Of a DNA stretch of 64,000 nt, positions 40,517 to 64,000 are shown piece by piece. Source of the DNA: an uncultured bacterium (GTDB lineage: Bacteria; Margulisbacteria; WOR-1; O2-12-FULL-45-9); contig CAZMPJ010000002.1 in NCBI GenBank assembly GCA_964568455.1, forward strand, positions 21,769 to 85,768. Reading direction: 5' to 3'. Position 1 is the first letter of the stretch. Each line of letters starts with the position of its first letter. The position numbers were made by a program, and so were the translations under genes. The notes under the pieces are model-generated. The model saw only the letters and a program-made list of their open reading frames with translations, was not told the origin of the DNA and did not search any database.

Positions 40517-40589
<73 letters not shown>

Positions 40590-40599
40590 TTTTTAATAT

Positions 40600-40674
40600 C
40601 GGGGTGTGGCTCAACTTGGCTAGAGCACCTGCTTTGGGAGCAGGGGGTTGCTGGTTCAAATCCAGTCACCCCGA
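40600..40674 (+). tRNA. tRNA-Pro (TGG)
   Basis: Anticodon loop TTTGGGA with G37, acceptor CGGGGTG/CACCCCG. Confidence 0.8.
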
Positions 40675-40682
40675 TTTTTTTG

Positions 40683-40757
40683 GGCGCCCGTAGCTCAGCT
40701 GGATAGAGCAACAGATTTCTAATCTGTAGGCCACAGGTTCGAATCCTGTCGGGTGCG
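40683..40757 (+). tRNA. tRNA-Arg (TCT)
   Basis: Anticodon loop TTTCTAA. D-loop AGCTCAGCTGGATAGAGC. Confidence 0.8.
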
Positions 40758-40765
40758 CGTTTAAT

Positions 40766-40846
40766 GGGCGAGTGGCGGAACTGGCAGACGCACTAGACTT
40801 AGGATCTAGCGGTTTATCCGTGGAGGTTCAAATCCTCTCTCGCCCA
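40766..40846 (+). tRNA. tRNA-Leu (TAG)
   Basis: Anticodon loop CTTAGGA and a long variable arm (class II). Confidence 0.75.
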
Positions 40847-40863
40847 TGTTATTATGTCAAAGT

Positions 40864-40936
<73 letters not shown>

Positions 40937-40938
40937 AT

Positions 40939-41011
40939 GCGCCACTAGCTCAACTGGCAGAGCAGGACACTCTTAATGTCAAGGTTATAGGTTCAACTCC
41001 TATGTGGCGCA
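40939..41011 (+). tRNA. tRNA-Lys (CTT), identity tentative
   Basis: Anticodon loop CTCTTAA with U33 and A37. There is a G-A mismatch at the base of the anticodon stem. The T-arm is ATAGG/CCTAT. Confidence 0.6.
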
Positions 41012-41035
41012 CTTTTTAATATTGCTGAATTGATT

Positions 41036-55353: not shown

Positions 55354-56952
55354 ATGGAAAATAAAAAAACAAAAATATTAATTTTGTTTATTCTCTGCCT
55401 GGTATTATTCCTCTTAGTTGTAATCCGCTTGATCGATGTACAAATTATCCATCATGAGTTTTATCAGAAAAAATCGCAAAAGCAGCGCACTCGCATTATT
55501 GAGCGGGCGGCTCAGCGTGGTGATATTTTTGACCGCAATGGTAATTTACTGGCTACTACTATCGACACTTATTCTGCTTTTACTCATAAAAACGGGGTTT
55601 TTACCTGGATTAAGAGAAAGTTACCGCAAGCAACGGGTGAAAAGATCAAACAAAAGAATCCTGCTAAGATTGGTTTAATCAAAGAAAAGAAAAGGATTTA
55701 TCCTAAAGGTCAGTTAGCTTCCCAGCTTTTGGGATTTGTTGGCTTGGATAACGAGGGGCTTTCTGGGATTGAGCTTTCTTATGAAGAAAATTTAAAAGGT
55801 AAAGAAGGTAAAGTTATAACCGAAGGGGATCCAACCGGTAGGGAACTTTATGGCGCTGTCCGCGAAATTGAACCGGGTTCAGACGGAATGAATATTACTT
55901 TAACCATTGATGAAAATATACAGTATGTTGCTGAACGGGAACTTAAAAAGCAGATTAAAAAGTATCGAGCATTATCAGGTATGTGTATTGTCATGGACGC
56001 AGAAACCGGTGAAATTTTTGCGCTGGCTTCTCTGCCGGGCTTTGATCCTAATAGTTATAAAAAGTTTAATGCCAAACGCTGGCACCCGCGCTTTTTGGAT
56101 CCTTTTGAACCGGGTTCTACTTTTAAAGTGATTACCGTAGCCGCAGCTTTAGACGAAGGAGTAATTTCTCCTGAAACCATGTTAAAGAGTATGGATACTA
56201 TTACTGTGGGCGGAAAAGTGATTGGTAATGCGCATGAAATTGATTGGCCAGCCAGAAAAATTTCTGTTTCTAAGATGCTGGAAGAGTCGATTAACACAGG
56301 AATAGTTCAGGTTGGCTTAAAACTCGGTCCAGAAAAGTTTTACGCTAAGATTAAAGATTTTAATTTTGGTCAGCGTACTGGTTTTGGTTTATACGGTGAA
56401 TCAAGAGGGATTTTGCGTAATTGGAAACGCTGGTACAAGCCAGATATTGCTATGATTACCTTTGGTCAGAGCATTGCAGTAACTCCGATACAGCTTTTAG
56501 TAGCTTTTTCTGCTTTTGCTAATAACGGAGTAATGGTCAAGCCTTATTTAGTTAGAAAGATCGAAGGAATTGATAGTAAATTTGTTAAAGTAAATACCAG
56601 GAAAGAGATTGGTCGGGCGATTTCTAAAAAAGCGACAGAGCAAACTAAAGAATTGATGTTAAATGTTGTTAGGTTAGGTACGGGTAGGCCGGCCAGGATT
56701 ACTAGTTTTAAGGTGATGGGTAAAACCGGTACTGCGCAGAAGACCAGGCCAGGCGGCAAAGGTTATTTAAAAGATCATTACATTGCTTCTTTTATTGGCT
56801 TAGCACCCTTTGATGATCCAAAATTAATTTGTTTAGTTATTGTGGATGATCCCCGCGGTAAATATTGGGGCAGCACAGTTTGCGGTCCAGTATTTAAGAG
56901 TGTAATGGAATATTCACTGCGATACCTAAACGTTAAACCGGATATGATTTGA
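55354..56952 (+). CDS. peptidoglycan D,D-transpeptidase (PBP2/FtsI class)
   Basis: N-terminal TM helix, dimerisation domain, and transpeptidase motifs STFK, SIN, KTGT. Confidence 0.8.
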   Translation: MENKKTKILILFILCLVLFLLVVIRLIDVQIIHHEFYQKKSQKQRTRIIERAAQRGDIFDRNGNLLATTIDTYSAFTHKNGVFTWIKRKLPQATGEKIKQKNPAKIGLIKEKKRIYPKGQLASQLLGFVGLDNEGLSGIELSYEENLKGKEGKVITEGDPTGRELYGAVREIEPGSDGMNITLTIDENIQYVAERELKKQIKKYRALSGMCIVMDAETGEIFALASLPGFDPNSYKKFNAKRWHPRFLDPFEPGSTFKVITVAAALDEGVISPETMLKSMDTITVGGKVIGNAHEIDWPARKISVSKMLEESINTGIVQVGLKLGPEKFYAKIKDFNFGQRTGFGLYGESRGILRNWKRWYKPDIAMITFGQSIAVTPIQLLVAFSAFANNGVMVKPYLVRKIEGIDSKFVKVNTRKEIGRAISKKATEQTKELMLNVVRLGTGRPARITSFKVMGKTGTAQKTRPGGKGYLKDHYIASFIGLAPFDDPKLICLVIVDDPRGKYWGSTVCGPVFKSVMEYSLRYLNVKPDMI

Positions 56953-56962
56953 TTCTCTAAAC

Positions 56963-56985
56963 TGACCATATCTGGTCACTTTTTT
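56963..56985 (+). terminator. putative intrinsic terminator
   Basis: TGACCA-tatc-TGGTCA hairpin followed by CTTTTTT, immediately after the PBP stop. Confidence 0.4.
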
Positions 56986-57051
56986 CCCTCTCCCACGCTT
57001 AAATATACCTGGTAATAACGTTGCTATAACTATTATTAGGAGGATTTAACC

Positions 57052-57567
57052 ATGAATGAACTGATACCAATGGAACGGATTGAGAGTAAAATATTTATTA
57101 TTCGAGGCCAGAAAGTAATGATTGATAGAGATTTAGCTAAATTATATGAAGTTGAGACAAAATATTTAAATCGTCAAGTAAGGAGAAATAGAAAGCGGTT
57201 CCCTAAAGAATTTATGTTTCAGCTTAACAGAAGAGAGAGGGGTGAACTGGTGACAAATTGTCACCGGTTTGACAGTTTAAAGCATTCATCTTCTTTTCCC
57301 TTCGCTTTTACAGAGCATGGAGTTGCTATGTTAGCAGGTATATTGAAAAGTAAAAAAGCTATAGATATAAGCATTTACATTGTTAAAGCTTTTATTGCCT
57401 TGAAGAAATATATTTATACACACAAAGAATTTGCTAAAAGATTAAACTTGTTAGAACAAAAACACAAAAAACATGATGTTGAAATAGAGACGATTTTTGA
57501 AGCGATCAAGCAGCTTATTAAGGAAGAAGAGCAGCCGAAGAAAAGGTTTGGGTTTCAAATTGAGTAG
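57052..57567 (+). CDS. ORF6N (KilA-N-like) domain protein
   Basis: IRGQKVMIDRDLAKLYEVETKYLNRQVRRNRKRFPKEFMFQL matches the ORF6N DNA-binding domain consensus. Confidence 0.65.
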   Translation: MNELIPMERIESKIFIIRGQKVMIDRDLAKLYEVETKYLNRQVRRNRKRFPKEFMFQLNRRERGELVTNCHRFDSLKHSSSFPFAFTEHGVAMLAGILKSKKAIDISIYIVKAFIALKKYIYTHKEFAKRLNLLEQKHKKHDVEIETIFEAIKQLIKEEEQPKKRFGFQIE

Positions 57568-57590
57568 GGCGAGAGTCTTGAATCAATTAA

Positions 57591-58871
57591 TCATTCTGCG
57601 TCCAGGCAAAAACTCCAAGTGGCATGATGTTTTAGTAAAAATTGTTTAAAGCCTGCTTGATTTTCTGGTTTTAAGGCAACAGTAGTAAGAGCCCAGGTTA
57701 GCTTAGGATTGTCTAAGGACCAATGAGCAACGAGTACAGAGGGATCGGTTAGATCGGTGTGCTGATCAGGGGCTAATGCTTTTAAAAGCACTTGTTGTTG
57801 AAAAGGGGTTAATCCCAGCGATTGCATAAGAGCATCATTTTTTATTGATTCTTTTATTTCCTGTTGTTCTTGATCTGTTATTTCTTCTGGTAAATCATGC
57901 TTTCTAAATTCTTTTAAGGCTGCTATTAGTACAAATCCTTCATAGCAGTGCCAATCATAAATCCAGGTTGGTTTTATAGCGGACGAGAAAGCGCTGGCAA
58001 TAGCTTTTACATTAGGATCATGATCTTTGGCTGCATAAATCACTACTTGATAAGCGCCTAACGGGGGATCTAAGCTTAATTTAAGCGCGAATAATTTGTT
58101 GTCGGTAAAACAGGGCATTAAAGATTCCACCATTTCTAAACCTTTTTCCAGCGAGCCAGTAAAAACAACCCATTTGCCGGTTTCCATGTGTGTATCTTTT
58201 TGGACCCTGGTCAAACCGTTTTTGCTTTTTATATATACAAAAGAAGGATATAGATATATGGGAAACACCCCTTCTGTGTTTTTAGCTGACTGATATAATC
58301 TTTTAAAAGCAGCTATACCTGTTGTTAGTTGGTCTTGCTCAATAATATCTTCCAATTTGATTCCAGACCAGTCTGTTATTTCTTTAATAGCTCTTTTGCT
58401 TACTATATTTACGAAAAACCTGAAAGTAAGCATATGTCTTAAATTTTCAAATGGTTGAATAGCCCTTGTCTCACCATGAAATTTCTGATAAAAATTGTCA
58501 TTGCATAAGAACCAATCTGTGTAATTACGCTCTCCTCCTGCAAAACCAACCAATTCTTCGTTGCTAAGCCCGGCCAAAGCAGATTCAAAATTATGCCACA
58601 GTTCTGTTTTAAAGAGCCCGTTATTAAGTGCAAGAAGGGCGTCGGGACCAAGAACCATGTAACAGTTGTTAAAGGAAAATAGTGAAGGAATGGGCCGATC
58701 CGCCATAATAGTTGGAGCGTTGGAGCAAGCAGCAGCAGCTGCTGTTGTATTAGGCGCGCTTACCACAAAGGGTAGGGGCTTTTTTGCAATGGGTCTGTTG
58801 TGATTTGGCAAGCCAAACCCAAGCACAGCTACTGTTGTTGCAAAAAGAGCTCTTCCTCGTGTAATCAGCAT
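57591..58871 (-). CDS. hypothetical secreted protein (426 aa)
   Basis: N-terminal signal-like segment (RGRALFATTVAVLGFGL) and Ala-rich linker. No recognisable catalytic motif. Confidence 0.35.
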   Translation of the reverse strand: MLITRGRALFATTVAVLGFGLPNHNRPIAKKPLPFVVSAPNTTAAAAACSNAPTIMADRPIPSLFSFNNCYMVLGPDALLALNNGLFKTELWHNFESALAGLSNEELVGFAGGERNYTDWFLCNDNFYQKFHGETRAIQPFENLRHMLTFRFFVNIVSKRAIKEITDWSGIKLEDIIEQDQLTTGIAAFKRLYQSAKNTEGVFPIYLYPSFVYIKSKNGLTRVQKDTHMETGKWVVFTGSLEKGLEMVESLMPCFTDNKLFALKLSLDPPLGAYQVVIYAAKDHDPNVKAIASAFSSAIKPTWIYDWHCYEGFVLIAALKEFRKHDLPEEITDQEQQEIKESIKNDALMQSLGLTPFQQQVLLKALAPDQHTDLTDPSVLVAHWSLDNPKLTWALTTVALKPENQAGFKQFLLKHHATWSFCLDAE

Positions 58872-58940
58872 ATATTATTATCGTTATAAAAACAGATAAA
58901 TTTCAGGGGGATTTCTTTGTCCGGCCCAATCCATGCCTTA

Positions 58941-59037
58941 AATGACGAATTCCTCAATGACGAATGACGAATTAATGTTTCAATTGATCAATTGTTCAAT
59001 TGGAATTTCTTTCGTCATTCGAATTTCGTCATTGAAT
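58941..59037. promoter_or_regulatory. repeat/operator array: TGACGAA x3, CAATTG x3, TTCGTCA x2 forming a roughly 95-bp imperfect palindrome
   Basis: TGACGAA at 58943, 58958 and 58965. CAATTG at 58981, 58989 and 58997. TTCGTCA at 59011 and 59025. Lies between the divergent genes, just upstream of the hsdM promoter. Confidence 0.45.
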
Positions 59038-59057
59038 AATTAATCTCTTTCCATCTT

Positions 59058-59086
59058 TTGCTTCCCCCCATTTTATATATTATAAT
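59058..59086 (+). promoter_or_regulatory. putative sigma70-type promoter of the type I R-M operon (TTGCTT-N17-TATAAT)
   Basis: -35 element at 59058-59063 and perfect -10 at 59081-59086. RBS AAGGATGGGG lies ahead of the ATG at 59131. Confidence 0.45.
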
Positions 59087-59130
59087 GATTTATTGCTGAT
59101 TTTGGTATAAGGATGGGGAAAAATTAAAAG

Positions 59131-60585
59131 ATGTTTGAGCAATCATTTAAAAATATAGACAATATTCTCTGGAAAGACGCTGGGGTTTCGAGTGAGCTGG
59201 ATTATGTTGAACAAACTTCTTGGATTCTTTTTCTTAAATATCTTGATGATTTAGAAAAAGATAAAAAGACCGAAGCAGAGCTTGCCGGTAAAAAATATAA
59301 AAATATTATTGATCCCAGGTTTAGATGGGAAAACTGGGCAGTCCCCAAGGTTGCTGACGGGAAAATTGATCGCAAAGAAGCCCTTACAGGCGATGATTTA
59401 AAGGATTTTGTTGACCACAAACTTTTTCCTTATCTTAAAAGATTTAAAAGCAATGCTTATGAGCCTGATACGATAGAATATAAAATCGGTGAAATATTTA
59501 ATGAACTAAAAAACAAAATTCATAGTGGCCGTGTTTTACGTGATATTTTTAATGTTATTGACGACTTACATTTTCGCTCGCAAAAGGAGAAGTGTGAGCT
59601 TTCTCATCTTTATGAAGGCAAGATTAAAAATATGGGTAATGCTGGTCGTAATGGGGGAGAGTATTATACGCCGCGTCCGTTGATCAAAACCATTGTCAAA
59701 GTAGTGGCCCCTAAAATTGGTAACAAAATATATGATGGAGCCGTTGGCTCGGCAGGATTTTTAGTTGAAGCTTTTGAGTATCTTAAAGAAAGCAAGAATC
59801 TTTCTACCAAAGACTTAGAAACATTGCAGAAAAAGACCTTTTTTGGAAAAGAAAAAAAACCACTGGCTTATATTATTGGTATTATGAATATGATCCTTCA
59901 TGGTATTGAGGCACCGAATATTATCCGTAGGAATACGTTGGCCGAGAATATTTTGGATATTCAGGAAAAGGATCGCTACGATATTGTTTTGGCCAATCCT
60001 CCTTTTGGTGGTAAGGAACGTGCCGAAGTTCAGCACAATTTTCCTATTAAAACTGGCGAGACGGCTTTTCTCTTCTTACAGCACTTTATAAAGATTTTAA
60101 AGGCTGGAGGAAAAGGCGGCATAGTCATTAAAAATACGTTTCTTTCCAATACTGATAACGCGGCTGTTTCTCTGCGCAAGCTTTTGCTGGAAAGCTGTAA
60201 TCTTCATACCGTACTTGATTTACCGGGAGGGACTTTTCAAGGTGCTGGTGTCAAAACAGTAGTCCTCTTTTTTGAAAAAGGCAAGCCGACGAAGAAAGTT
60301 TGGTACTATCAGCTTAATCTGGATAGAAATTTGGGTAAAACCAATCCGCTTAACGAAAAGGACCTGGCGGAATTTTTGAAATTGCAAAAGAAAATGGCAA
60401 AATCGGAAAATTCGTGGTCAGTGAATGTGAAGGATATCGATCAAAAGACTTTTGACCTGTCGGTGAAGAATTCGAATAAGGGTGGGGAAGTTGCGTTGAG
60501 GGAGCCTAAGGAGGTTTTGGAGGAGATGAGGAAGTTGAATTACGAAAGTAAAAAGATTTTAGAAATGATTAGGAAGGATGTTTAG
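59131..60585 (+). CDS. hsdM: type I restriction-modification system methyltransferase subunit
   Basis: N-terminal HsdM_N region and NPPFGG catalytic motif. SAM-binding motif region (DGAVGSAGFL). Confidence 0.85.
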   Translation: MFEQSFKNIDNILWKDAGVSSELDYVEQTSWILFLKYLDDLEKDKKTEAELAGKKYKNIIDPRFRWENWAVPKVADGKIDRKEALTGDDLKDFVDHKLFPYLKRFKSNAYEPDTIEYKIGEIFNELKNKIHSGRVLRDIFNVIDDLHFRSQKEKCELSHLYEGKIKNMGNAGRNGGEYYTPRPLIKTIVKVVAPKIGNKIYDGAVGSAGFLVEAFEYLKESKNLSTKDLETLQKKTFFGKEKKPLAYIIGIMNMILHGIEAPNIIRRNTLAENILDIQEKDRYDIVLANPPFGGKERAEVQHNFPIKTGETAFLFLQHFIKILKAGGKGGIVIKNTFLSNTDNAAVSLRKLLLESCNLHTVLDLPGGTFQGAGVKTVVLFFEKGKPTKKVWYYQLNLDRNLGKTNPLNEKDLAEFLKLQKKMAKSENSWSVNVKDIDQKTFDLSVKNSNKGGEVALREPKEVLEEMRKLNYESKKILEMIRKDV

Positions 60586-60590
60586 ATGAC

Positions 60591-61841
60591 ATGGCAAAAC
60601 AAAATAAACAAGAGTATCTAAAAAGCAACCTAAGAACTAAAAAGGTGTTTTATTATCGCGATGATAAAGAGGGGATAGACGTTTTGTCTCGTGAAGTGTT
60701 TAAAAGGAAGTTCCTTGAAATTCATTATCCTTTTAATAGAAATGGTAATCAAAAATACAAATTCATAGGATCTATTGAGTTCCATGGAGTCTCTCCGAGG
60801 AATATAAATGGCATATATAAAGCCGTAAATTATGGGCTTGGCTTTACAAAAAACCTGAGCCCCATAATTTATAGTTTAGAAAAATTCCCTTCAATAATTA
60901 AAATTGTAATTTCCCAAAATGTTAAATCAAAGATAATGAAAGATGCTGTAGTTTTTAGTGTAAAAGATTTGGAGGGCATATTTAACACAATTAAACCTTT
61001 AAAGGAAGTTCAATCTTCGGAATTAAAAAGAGTTGCTAGTAACACGCTATCTGAGGTTTTCCCTGGAAAAATAAAACATAGGGCCCGATCATATAATAAA
61101 GGTGAATTGGCTTTGTTTATTAAAGACAAAAAGGTTTCTTCTGCGGGACTCTCCGACACAGATGTTAGTAGATTGATAGAAATAATTCCTGAAAAGATTA
61201 AAGAAGAGAAAGTCGTCTATAGGGCTGAGGAGAAAATTAGATTTATAAAACTTGAAAGGGTTAAAAATGAATTCCTGAGAATAGTAAATCAAAAAACAGA
61301 CACTAAAAAACTTGAGGAGAAGTGCCAACTATTCTTTGCAAAAAATAGCTGGATTCTCTCTAACATCTTATCTATGCCTGTTGTATTTCTTAATGGCAAG
61401 GCTTATGTTGGAGGGAAAGGATGTGATAACAAAGGAGGAAAAGAAGCGGACTTTTTATTTAGAAATAAATTAACAAAGAATGTATTTATAGTTGAGATTA
61501 AAACTCCTCTAAAGAAAATTATTGATGGTGATGCTCCGTATAGAATGCCCAATATTTTTAGTATGGGAAAAGAACTGACTGGAGGAATCGTTCAGGTCTT
61601 AAATCAGAGAGACAGCTTACAAAAGGAGTTTTACTCTATATCAAAAGGCAAGTTTAAGGCGCTCAATCCGAAGTGCGTGTTACTGATTGGTCGACTCAAA
61701 GGCTTAAAAAAGGAACAACTGGAGTCCTTTGAGTTGTTTAGAAGCAACATTAATGATTGCGAAATTATTACATACGATGAGCTTCTTGCAAGAACTAACT
61801 TAGTGTTAGGGCAATTCGTTGATAAAAAAAAGAAAAAGTAA
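60591..61841 (+). CDS. Shedu-like (DUF4263-type) PD-(D/E)xK nuclease-domain protein embedded in the type I R-M operon
   Basis: The C-terminal third carries D...(FIV)EIK (EADFLF..NVFIVEIKTP), VQVLNQ, CVLLIGRL and ...IITYDELL, matching the DUF4263 nuclease core and C-terminal signature. The N-terminal roughly 250 aa has no recognisable similarity. Confidence 0.45.
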   Translation: MAKQNKQEYLKSNLRTKKVFYYRDDKEGIDVLSREVFKRKFLEIHYPFNRNGNQKYKFIGSIEFHGVSPRNINGIYKAVNYGLGFTKNLSPIIYSLEKFPSIIKIVISQNVKSKIMKDAVVFSVKDLEGIFNTIKPLKEVQSSELKRVASNTLSEVFPGKIKHRARSYNKGELALFIKDKKVSSAGLSDTDVSRLIEIIPEKIKEEKVVYRAEEKIRFIKLERVKNEFLRIVNQKTDTKKLEEKCQLFFAKNSWILSNILSMPVVFLNGKAYVGGKGCDNKGGKEADFLFRNKLTKNVFIVEIKTPLKKIIDGDAPYRMPNIFSMGKELTGGIVQVLNQRDSLQKEFYSISKGKFKALNPKCVLLIGRLKGLKKEQLESFELFRSNINDCEIITYDELLARTNLVLGQFVDKKKKK

Positions 61842-62970
61842 AAAATCTGATTGGCAAACAAAAAAACTCGAAGACTCTATAGAAAAAGTCGTGTACCCAA
61901 ATAAAATCCCAAGGAAGAAATTTTTAGTATCAGGTATATTCCCTGTTATTTCGCAAGAGGCTGATTTTATAAATGGATATTGGGATGATGCGGCGGATGT
62001 GTTCAAAGTTGGCGCTCCTGTTATTATCTTTGGTGATCATACGCAAGTCTTAAAGTATGTTGACCATGATTTTGTTTTAGGCGCGGATGGGGTAAAAATC
62101 TTAAAGCCCAAAAAGTTTTTAGGTGCGAGGTTCTTTTATTATTTTCTGCAAAGCATTGATTTAAAAAATTTAGGGTATGCTAGACATTACAGATTGCTGA
62201 AAGAAATTGAAATTTCATACCCTGAATCCCTCTCCGAACAATGCCACATCGTAAAGAAATTAGATAAAATCTTTGCCGATATCGAAAAAGCCAAACAGAA
62301 CGCCCAAAAGAATCTCCAAAACGCCCGCGAGTTTTTTGAATCATATTTGCAGGGTACGTTGGCCAAACCAGGTAAAGGGTGGGGGGAAAAGAGGTTGGGG
62401 GATGTGTTTGAGATTCAAAGAGGGGGTTCCCCGAGGCCTATTCAGAAATATTTGACAGATGATGAGAATGGTATTAACTGGATTAAGATTGGAGATACAC
62501 AGGGGATCTCTAAATATATTTATAAAACAAGGCAGAAAATTAAACCAGAAGGTGTAAGGCGATCAAGATTGGTAAAAGAGGGGGATTTTATCCTTTCAAA
62601 CTCAATGAGTTTTGGAAGACCATACATAATGAAAACAACCGGGTGCATTCATGACGGCTGGCTGCTTTTAAGGGAAAAAACAGAAACGGTTGATAAGAAT
62701 TATTTATACTTCATGCTTGGATCAAGTTTAGTATTCAGGCAATTCGATAAACTTGCAGCAGGTTCAACTGTGAGAAATCTAAATATAGGTTTAGTAAAAA
62801 GCGTAATTATTCCTATTCCTCCACTCTCAGAACAAAAGCGTATCGTTGCCAAGCTCGATGCCCTTTCTGCCAAAACCAAAAAGCTGGAAGTAATTTATCA
62901 ACAGAAACTGGCCGATCTGGAAGAATTGAAAAAAGCGGTACTTAATAAGGCGTTTGCGGGGGAATTATAG
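61819..62970 (+). CDS. hsdS: type I restriction-modification system specificity subunit
   Basis: Two target-recognition domains separated by the conserved LSEQCHIVKKLDKIFADIEKAK helix and ending with LSEQKRIVAKLDALSAKTKKLE. TTG start lies inside an A-rich tract. Confidence 0.75.
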   Translation: MIKKRKSKKSDWQTKKLEDSIEKVVYPNKIPRKKFLVSGIFPVISQEADFINGYWDDAADVFKVGAPVIIFGDHTQVLKYVDHDFVLGADGVKILKPKKFLGARFFYYFLQSIDLKNLGYARHYRLLKEIEISYPESLSEQCHIVKKLDKIFADIEKAKQNAQKNLQNAREFFESYLQGTLAKPGKGWGEKRLGDVFEIQRGGSPRPIQKYLTDDENGINWIKIGDTQGISKYIYKTRQKIKPEGVRRSRLVKEGDFILSNSMSFGRPYIMKTTGCIHDGWLLLREKTETVDKNYLYFMLGSSLVFRQFDKLAAGSTVRNLNIGLVKSVIIPIPPLSEQKRIVAKLDALSAKTKKLEVIYQQKLADLEELKKAVLNKAFAGEL

Positions 62971-62976
62971 TATTAT

Positions 62977-64000
62977 ATGGATATGAACGAAGCCGAAACA
63001 CGAGCCGAATATATTGACCCAAAGCTCAAAGCGAGTGGGTGGGGTGAAGTAGAAGGATCAAAAATCCTACGTGAACATCGTTTTACTGAAGGTAGGATCA
63101 AAATAGGTGGAAAGCGTGGTAAAGAGGAAATTGCTGACTATCTCCTGGTATACAAAAATCAAAAACTAGCAGTTGCTGAAGCTAAGAAATTGGAGTTACC
63201 CGTTGAGGAAGGGGTGGCTCAGGCAAAAACATACGCGGAAAAGTTAGGGATTCCTTATGCCTATTCAACCAATGGCAAAGAAATTTACGAAATCAATATG
63301 ATTACTGGACAAGAAGGTCCAATTGATAGATTTCCAGATCCAGAAGAGCTGTGGAATAAGATTTATGCTGATCATAATGATTGGAAAAAGAAATTCTCTA
63401 CAATCCCGTTTGAAGATGTTGGAGGCACAAAAACGGTTCGCTATTATCAAGAAATAGCGGTTAATAATGTCCTTGATGCCATTGCCGAAGAAAAACAGCG
63501 GGTTCTACTTACAATGGCTACTGGAACAGGCAAAACTTTTATTGCTTTTCAGATAGCGTGGAAACTTTTTCAAACGCGTTGGAACTTAAAACGCGATGGC
63601 GAAAGACGACCAAGAATATTATTCCTGGCTGATCGCAATATTTTAGCTGATCAAGCCTTCAATTCTTTTTCACCCTTTCCAGAAGACGCTTTAGAGCGCA
63701 TAAAACCGTTAGATATTCGCAAAAAGGGAAGTGTCCCAACTAGCGGTAATATATTCTTCACTATCTTTCAAACTTTTATGAGTGGGCCTAATAATACGTC
63801 TTATTATGGCGATTACCCCAAGGACTTTTTTGACATCATTATTATTGATGAGTGTCATCGTGGTGGAGCTAATGATGAATCAAACTGGCGGGATATTATG
63901 GAGTATTTCTCTCCGGCAGTTCAGATTGGTTTAACTGCTACACCAAAAAGAAAAGATAATATTGATACCTATCGGTATTTTGGCGAGCCAGTCTATATTT
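62977..64000 (+). CDS. hsdR: type I restriction enzyme R subunit, 3' end outside window
   Basis: N-terminal HsdR_N region (AETRAEYIDPKL..GW) and DEAD-like helicase motif I (MATGTGKT). Motif II DECHRG follows at about 63841. Confidence 0.8.
   Translation, partial: MDMNEAETRAEYIDPKLKASGWGEVEGSKILREHRFTEGRIKIGGKRGKEEIADYLLVYKNQKLAVAEAKKLELPVEEGVAQAKTYAEKLGIPYAYSTNGKEIYEINMITGQEGPIDRFPDPEELWNKIYADHNDWKKKFSTIPFEDVGGTKTVRYYQEIAVNNVLDAIAEEKQRVLLTMATGTGKTFIAFQIAWKLFQTRWNLKRDGERRPRILFLADRNILADQAFNSFSPFPEDALERIKPLDIRKKGSVPTSGNIFFTIFQTFMSGPNNTSYYGDYPKDFFDIIIIDECHRGGANDESNWRDIMEYFSPAVQIGLTATPKRKDNIDTYRYFGEPVYI

Follow-up and report, generated by a model that had tools for sequence, protein, structure and literature searches.

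A predicted Shedu nuclease gene between hsdM and hsdS of a probable EcoAI-like type I restriction-modification operon

Introduction

The closest described systems are the solved Shedu nucleases: the type 1A enzyme of B. cereus (PDB 8ti8/8ti9; Gu et al., Mol Cell 2025; bioRxiv 10.1101/2023.08.10.552793) and E. coli SduA (PDB 8ps4/8ps6; Loeff et al., Cell 2025; bioRxiv 10.1101/2023.08.10.552762). In type 1 Shedu proteins, N-terminal domains without structural homologues are the norm (10.1101/2023.08.10.552793; 10.1101/2023.08.10.552762). In the census of Gu et al., type I-IV restriction-modification (R-M) systems contain 602 of the 5,499 Shedu genes, and Patescibacteria are not among the main phyla named there (10.1101/2023.08.10.552793). 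The arrangement described here, with a Shedu gene embedded in a type I R-M operon, was also reported by these authors. Literature searches revealed no functional study of an R-M-nested Shedu protein. The Shedu family, its nuclease mechanism, its unclassifiable N-terminal sensor domains and its nesting in R-M loci have all been published.

E. coli SduA is described as a single-component system, whereas the gene analyzed in this work lies within a type I R-M operon. Another stand-by nuclease genetically linked to type I R-M is the anticodon nuclease PrrC of the EcoprrI type Ic locus, which belongs to an unrelated family (ABC-ATPase plus tRNase).

Results and discussion

Gene organization of the locus

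The window (the whole stretch of DNA analyzed, 64,000 nt) ends with four co-oriented genes, with the following features:

59131..60585, + strand: hsdM, type I R-M methyltransferase subunit (484 aa; Pfam and PADLOC)
60591..61841, + strand: sduA (ORF X), predicted Shedu immune nuclease of type 1 architecture (416 aa plus stop, ATG start)
60591..61010, + strand: Shedu N-terminal domain, residues 1-140 (beta-rich and basic; AF2 pLDDT about 90)
61011..61298, + strand: alpha-helical linker, residues 141-236 (AF2 helices)
61299..61841, + strand: DUF4263/SduA_C PD-(D/E)xK nuclease domain, residues 237-416 (alignment to 8ti8, homologue conservation)
61819..62970, + strand: hsdS, specificity subunit with two target-recognition domains (383 aa, probable TTG start)
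62977..64000, + strand: hsdR, restriction/translocase subunit, N-terminal 341 aa only (gene cut by the window end)

The gene order and spacings claimed in the first-pass annotation are borne out by the ORF coordinates, with 5 nt between hsdM and sduA, a 23-nt overlap of sduA with hsdS, and 6 nt between hsdS and hsdR. The overlap depends on the proposed TTG start of hsdS and is plausible, because no other start codon precedes the conserved DWQTKKLED stretch at the N-terminus. The 3' end of hsdM contains a Shine-Dalgarno-like sequence (AGGAAGGA) 12 nt ahead of the sduA ATG. Matches to promoter and terminator consensus sequences were not more common in the operon than in shuffled sequences, and an internal promoter or terminator separating sduA from the hsd genes was therefore rejected. 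The GC content of sduA is 0.329 vs 0.376-0.395 for the hsd genes.

The three hsd genes encode the subunits of a type I system. HsdM matches the Pfam families N6_Mtase (1.3e-61) and HsdM_N (6e-09), as well as the PADLOC model MTase_I PDLC03021 over its full length (5.1e-159). HsdS matches Methylase_S in two stretches (2.3e-28), in line with two target-recognition domains, and PADLOC Specificity_I (2.5e-88). The 341 residues of HsdR present in the window contain ResIII (9.6e-40) and HSDR_N, and align with positions 1-330 of the 768-position NCBIfam profile for the EcoAI/FtnUII family R subunit (1.6e-131); the score of 440 bits is below the 550-bit cut-off because the gene is cut at base 64000. 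Locus L081, the closest syntenic relative, encodes an 82%-identical HsdR of the full 768 aa with Helicase_C and EcoEI_R_C. From these profile matches, the host operon of sduA is probably an EcoAI-like type I R-M system (family IB), with hsdR seen in part only.

The nuclease domain of the sduA product

The Pfam gathering score of PF14082 (27 bits) was used as the threshold for Shedu membership. Residues 240-399 of the sduA product match PF14082 (SduA_C) with 86.7 bits (2.5e-24), covering profile positions 2-159 of 159. This strong match upholds the earlier assignment of the C-terminal region to DUF4263, and the motifs on which it was based (D..FIVEIK, LLIGRL and EIITYDELL) are all present in the translation. 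In addition, 18 PADLOC SduA models match the protein (best 4.7e-63), one of which (PDLC00384) spans residues 73-404. The fold of the nuclease domain is closer to the solved Shedu structures than to other PD-(D/E)xK enzymes. These results support the identification of the sduA product as a predicted Shedu (DUF4263/SduA_C) PD-(D/E)xK nuclease.

The nuclease motifs were assigned by alignment with 8ti8 onto the B. cereus motif residues given by Gu et al. (10.1101/2023.08.10.552793): E242 (motif I), D287 (II), E302/K304 (III) and Q335 (IV). All five residues are invariant across 40 homologues. The loop carrying motif II (residues 263-296) has pLDDT values <50 in the AF2 model and is predicted to be flexible. 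The active site is intact, and the protein is predicted to be catalytically competent.

We also considered that sduA might be a degenerate or domesticated passenger, encoding an inactive nuclease or having a non-defence role, such as regulation of the R-M operon. Decay does occur in the nested position, as a related nested Shedu gene (locus L023) is split into pieces of 254 aa and 122 aa. In contrast, sduA is a full-length ORF with a good ribosome-binding site, retains all catalytic motif residues and family-invariant N-terminal residues, and its product is 70-71% identical to intact homologues over 97-99% of its length. A passenger role is thus most improbable.

The N-terminal domain and linker

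The AF2 models show a type 1 architecture (called type I by Loeff et al.) with a beta-rich domain (residues 1-140), helices within residues 142-232 (142-156, 172-179, 189-198 and 201-232) and the nuclease (239-410). This tripartite organization with a low-confidence motif II loop matches those described for E. coli SduA and B. cereus Shedu, and E. coli SduA has a helical linker at the same position (10.1101/2023.08.10.552762). However, phmmer detected no sequence similarity between E. coli SduA and the sduA product at E<=1. The match between their N-terminal domains is not significant, and a DNA-end clamp role for the domain encoded here would be a prediction by analogy. The sPC4/Whirly fold, which marks type 1A, was not found in this domain.

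In the first-pass annotation, the N-terminal region was said to resemble nothing recognizable. This description holds for the first ~236 aa, which gave no Pfam match, no PDB sequence match and no PDB fold match. The implied novelty does not: the region is a conserved module of an established, large Shedu subfamily, whose 599 homologues from Patescibacteria, Bacteroidota and some archaea keep the full-length architecture and in many cases already carry the name 'Shedu immune nuclease family protein'. The N-terminal domain has a conserved signature (P47, K55-Y56, G74 and G82-x-G84-F-T86), and it carries a net positive charge in 75 of 75 homologues. A profile search against 1.84 billion representatives returned only 215 matching cluster representatives, and all ten of the distant matches tested carry SduA_C. 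On these grounds, a modular sensor shared with other effectors was rejected. The N-terminal domain is presumed to be the sensor or regulatory domain of the sduA product.

Genomic context and relationship to the type I enzyme

Most related loci have no type I R-M genes nearby: such genes were found at 11-13 of 79 loci (about 14%), and about 66 of the 79 lack them within 8 kb. Therefore, the subfamily does not show the obligate type I R-M linkage of PrrC. Among the neighbouring ORFs, 379 of 423 are singletons, and recurrence at the level of Pfam families was limited to type I R-M, AAA_15/AAA_21, serine recombinases, SLATT and T4SS. A divergent ORF of 426 aa has no PADLOC, Pfam or NCBIfam match. 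Close relatives are found next to MmeI and a recombinase, in an island with MunI, a methyltransferase and TIR, or with an integrase and McrBC. Thus, the defence settings anticipated for the homologues were indeed found, including type I R-M. The hsdM-X-hsdS context was rejected as a conserved signature of the subfamily, since nesting is facultative, its position within R-M operons differs between loci, and the nested members are dispersed across the Shedu tree. In L001, the nearest genome relative, the Shedu gene lacks this nesting.

Given the number of loci without type I genes and the prevalence of singleton neighbours, which point to autonomy, the sduA product is quite likely an autonomous single-gene Shedu nuclease, whose gene was inserted at the hsdM-hsdS junction of the EcoAI-like operon. 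After this insertion in a low-GC bacterium, taken here to belong probably to the Patescibacteria (CPR), sduA would share the transcript of the operon and be translationally coupled to the hsd genes, so that two independent DNA-targeting defences would be expressed together and mobilizable together. By homology to the solved Shedu enzymes, the DUF4263 domains may form a tetramer, whereas the basic N-terminal domains would restrain the nuclease and sense a nucleic-acid feature of infection. Activation would then lead to DNA nicking or cleavage, with substrate and trigger presumed to be like those of the solved enzymes.

Alternatively, the Shedu protein and the type I enzyme may cooperate as a functionally coupled composite, which appears rather unlikely. 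In one version, HsdR would cut unmodified DNA and the free ends would be sensed and processed by Shedu, a second blow preventing repair or recombination of phage DNA. E. coli SduA is reported to sense free DNA ends, and type I cleavage would make such ends; Gu et al. have proposed that Shedu may complement R-M activity (10.1101/2023.08.10.552793). In another version, Shedu would be a guard released once a phage anti-restriction protein puts the type I enzyme out of action. Its precedent is PrrC, which is silenced by the linked EcoprrI and switched on by an anti-restriction factor of T4 (PMC1484252, PMC2610378). However, prrC is described as always linked to an R-M locus (PMC3458546), unlike this Shedu subfamily, and the solved Shedu enzymes act as single proteins (10.1101/2023.08.10.552762).

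The context of sduA bears on cooperation in both directions. The gene is tightly nested and apparently translationally coupled, type I R-M counts, for this alternative, as the sole recurrent neighbour of the subfamily, the M-x-S-R order recurs in a 70%-identical relative (L081) and at two archaeal loci (L061 and L072), and an M-S-x-R cassette moves between phyla as a unit. Against this, about 85% of subfamily members lack nearby type I genes, nested members are interleaved on the tree with free-standing ones of the same architecture, and the variable insertion position weighs against a relationship of fixed stoichiometry or assembly. It is quite unlikely that hsdM-sduA-hsdS-hsdR is a true composite, in which the N-terminal domain would read HsdR-made DNA ends or translocation intermediates, or Shedu would stay latent until released by anti-restriction proteins. 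In the first case, restriction and Shedu would deliver a two-step kill; in either case, the cassette would be one composite rather than two co-located systems. The composite module suggested in the first-pass annotation was based solely on nesting; the location of the gene between hsdM and hsdS is real, but such nesting is published and facultative.

The locus is one more ordinary instance of a recurrent, non-obligate and published arrangement, and matters little as a discovery. It adds a probable Patescibacteria member to a Shedu subfamily in which the N-terminal domain has neither a solved structure nor a known trigger. As orthologous cassettes exist in other phyla, it is also of some use as a clean natural case for asking if R-M-nested Shedu cooperates with restriction. 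L081 holds an extra unrelated gene of 471 aa at the same position, with no PADLOC match and no precomputed Pfam match on record, which suggests that the hsdM-hsdS junction is tolerant of insertions.

A Shedu nuclease gene within a type I restriction-modification operon

The 3' end of the window is occupied by four co-oriented genes, placed by the ORF map as follows:

59131-60585, hsdM, 484 aa, co-oriented with the next three genes
60591-61841, ORF X (sduA), 416 aa, ATG start, same orientation as the hsd genes
61819-62970, hsdS, 383 aa, TTG start, same orientation
62977 onwards, cut at the window end (64000), hsdR, 341 aa visible, same orientation

The three hsd products were identified by Pfam, PADLOC and NCBIfam, with HsdR belonging to the EcoAI/FtnUII (type IB-like) family. 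The spacings read in the first-pass annotation are borne out: the ATG of ORF X lies five bases after the hsdM stop codon, ORF X overlaps hsdS by 23 nt, and 6 nt separate hsdS from hsdR. A Shine-Dalgarno-like AGGAAGGA is located inside the end of hsdM ahead of ORF X, and TTG is the sole start codon upstream of the conserved HsdS N-terminal stretch. Across 56900-64000, neither promoter-like nor terminator-like matches exceed the frequency seen in shuffled sequence. From the tight spacing, the Shine-Dalgarno-like site and these shuffle-level matches, co-transcription of ORF X with the hsd genes can reasonably be inferred. The Shedu gene has a lower GC content (0.329) than the flanking hsd genes (0.376-0.395).

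The earlier assignment of the C-terminal region to DUF4263/Shedu was confirmed by profile searches. Pfam SduA_C (PF14082) matches residues 240-399 over the whole profile at E 2.5e-24, scoring 86.7 bits where the gathering threshold is 27. ORF X is also matched by 18 PADLOC SduA models, the best of which (PDLC00384, 4.7e-63) spans residues 73-404, so that part of the N-terminal region already falls within an existing Shedu model. The motif residues of Bacillus cereus Shedu are given by Gu et al. (bioRxiv 10.1101/2023.08.10.552793, published in Mol Cell 2025) as E204, D249, E264/K266 and Q295; in an alignment with its structure (PDB 8ti8) they correspond to E242, D287, E302/K304 and Q335 of ORF X, all invariant across a 40-sequence alignment of homologs. 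D287 lies on a long loop (263-296) with pLDDT below 50 in the structure model, resembling in this respect the mobile "motif II loop", in which Gu et al. see the regulatory switch; the B. cereus enzyme is autoinhibited by its own N-terminal and linker domains (Gu et al.). ORF X is thus a Shedu nuclease whose active site is intact.

The N-terminal region

The structure model divides ORF X into three parts:

residues 1-140, beta-rich domain (pLDDT about 90)
residues ~142-232, helical linker
C-terminal to the linker, nuclease domain

The N-terminal part was described in the first-pass annotation as resembling nothing recognisable, and this held in Pfam, in a profile search of PDB sequences (nothing at E ≤ 10) and in Foldseek. 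It is not an orphan, since among 599 homologs of ORF X the full-length ones (410-440 aa) align throughout this region. Their identity to ORF X is 55-71% in Patescibacteria metagenomes and 34-39% in Bacteroidota, and "Shedu immune nuclease family protein" is already the name of many of them. The closest belong to MAGs of Parcubacteria and Nomurabacteria, which together with the GC content of the window (37.9%) suggests that the stretch derives from a Patescibacteria (CPR) genome. The major Shedu N-terminal classes other than 1A are novel folds without PDB homologs (Gu et al.), and an unrecognisable N-terminal domain is therefore the normal state for Shedu.

A profile of residues 1-236 matched only 215 proteins among 1.84 billion cluster representatives. 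The more distant matches (455-590 aa) have only profile positions of about 66-236 in common, and SduA_C was present in all ten of those tested. No homologs turned up outside Shedu; the module was thus found only on the Shedu nuclease, and its shuffling as a sensor onto other effectors was not seen. Several N-terminal positions are conserved (P47, K55-Y56, G74 and G82-x-G84-F-T86), and the net charge of the 1-140 domain is positive in 75 of 75 homologs, a consistency absent from the linker and nuclease of the same set. The conserved positions and the charge suggest that this domain may bind nucleic acid.

Genomic contexts of related Shedu genes

Shedu genes nested in restriction-modification loci are a published, recurrent pattern, as 602 of the 5,499 Shedu genes whose genomic context was available lie within R-M systems, types I, II, III and IV among them, and Shedu has been suggested to complement R-M or BREX activity (Gu et al.). 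We fetched 80 genomic loci encoding relatives of ORF X, and their ORFs were searched with iteratively built HMMs seeded by the HsdM, HsdS and HsdR of the window. Type I genes were found within 8 kb of the Shedu gene in 11-13 of the 79 loci counted (about 14%), sharing its orientation everywhere except at locus L025. The gene orders (M, S, R for the hsd genes, x for Shedu) included:

M-x-S-R: L061, L072 and L023 (Shedu split in L023)
M-S-x-R: L014, L015, L016, L055 and L068
M-S-R-x: L011
x-M-S-R: L060
R-S-M-x: L066

In L023 (5980-8441, a Paceibacterota MAG), the Shedu gene is in pieces of 254 and 122 aa, through either decay of this copy or a fault of the assembly.

The nested members are scattered on a neighbour-joining tree, and the nearest genome relative of the window protein (L001, Parcubacteria) is not nested. 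With such varied positions and so few type I loci, hsdM-X-hsdS was rejected as a conserved context of the subfamily. Defence contexts as such were found, as expected in the first-pass annotation. Among close metagenomic relatives, L081, the closest syntenic one, has the order hsdM-[471-aa gene]-sduA-hsdS-hsdR (HsdM 78% and HsdR 82% identical to those of the window, the latter a full 768-aa protein). A second Shedu gene adjoins a serine recombinase and an enzyme of the MmeI type, a third shares an island with MunI, a TIR protein and several methylases, and a fourth is near an integrase and McrBC. The extra L081 gene (709-2124, + strand) has no precomputed Pfam match on record and no PADLOC match, and could be a further passenger or defence gene, as yet uncharacterised, that occupies the hsdM-hsdS junction.

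Clustering of three neighbours per side (423 ORFs, 379 clusters) left the type I subunits alone as clearly recurrent. This agrees with a separate count of Pfam domains in 129 neighbours, in which N6_Mtase, HsdM_N and Methylase_S had six members each. Next in frequency came AAA_15, serine recombinases, AAA_21, SLATT_5, RhuM and conjugative-transfer proteins, a set typical of defence islands or mobile elements.

ORF X is most likely an autonomous Shedu nuclease co-expressed with the type I system. Repeated, independent insertion of such a defence gene at type I operon junctions that tolerate it would fit the varied positions, the scattered tree, the different contexts of relatives and the lower GC of the Shedu gene. 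Functional coupling to the type I enzyme, in which Shedu would act on the DNA ends that HsdR makes or guard against anti-restriction, seems unlikely. The type I association at about 14% of loci, regarded as strongly enriched, leans towards cooperation. So does the hsdM-hsdS-sduA-hsdR cassette of L014, L015, L016 and L068, whose DNA is about 90% identical across Balneolales, Kangiella (Gammaproteobacteria), Seonamhaeicola (Flavobacteriia) and Cyclobacterium (Cytophagia), with divergence limited to the hsdS target-recognition regions; this indicates that the whole cassette moves as a unit and was recently transferred between phyla. PrrC/EcoprrI is the textbook case of a latent nuclease tied to a type I locus, but prrC is described as always R-M-linked (PMC3458546), unlike this Shedu subfamily. 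The composite module proposed in the first-pass annotation is possible, but beyond the gene order we found no support for it.

Surroundings of the operon

Several further features were observed in the window:

58938-59041, imperfect palindrome of ~95 nt, intergenic between hsdM and a divergent ORF
57591-58871, - strand, this divergent ORF, 426 aa
57052-57567, + strand, ORF6N-domain protein, 171 aa
55354-56952, apparent penicillin-binding transpeptidase, read from the translation only
40517-41012, cluster of six tRNA genes (Gly, Pro, Arg, Leu, Gly, Lys) within 500 bp

The palindrome comprises three direct copies of AATGACGAAT (58941, 58956, 58963), two inverted copies of TTTCGTCATT (59010, 59024) and a central TTCAATTG-type palindrome. 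The 10-mer is present four times in the window, where 0.1 occurrences would be expected, and folding of the palindrome as DNA gives a z-score of -4.1. The element could serve the hsd operon as an operator, act in recombination as a site, or be what is left of a small mobile element. The 426-aa ORF has no Pfam, NCBIfam or PADLOC match; it resembles the neighbouring genes in GC3 (0.311), and its first ~55 aa, Ala/Thr-rich and of low complexity, seem to be an over-extension. In the 171-aa protein, Pfam finds the ORF6N domain at 2.4e-30, and PADLOC matches it to the candidate defence family PDC-S05 (1.3e-58). Its gene lies 1.5 kb ahead of the type I operon and forms with it a small defence islet directly downstream of the apparent housekeeping gene at 55354-56952. 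The whole window has a GC content of 37.9% and carries 11 tRNA genes.
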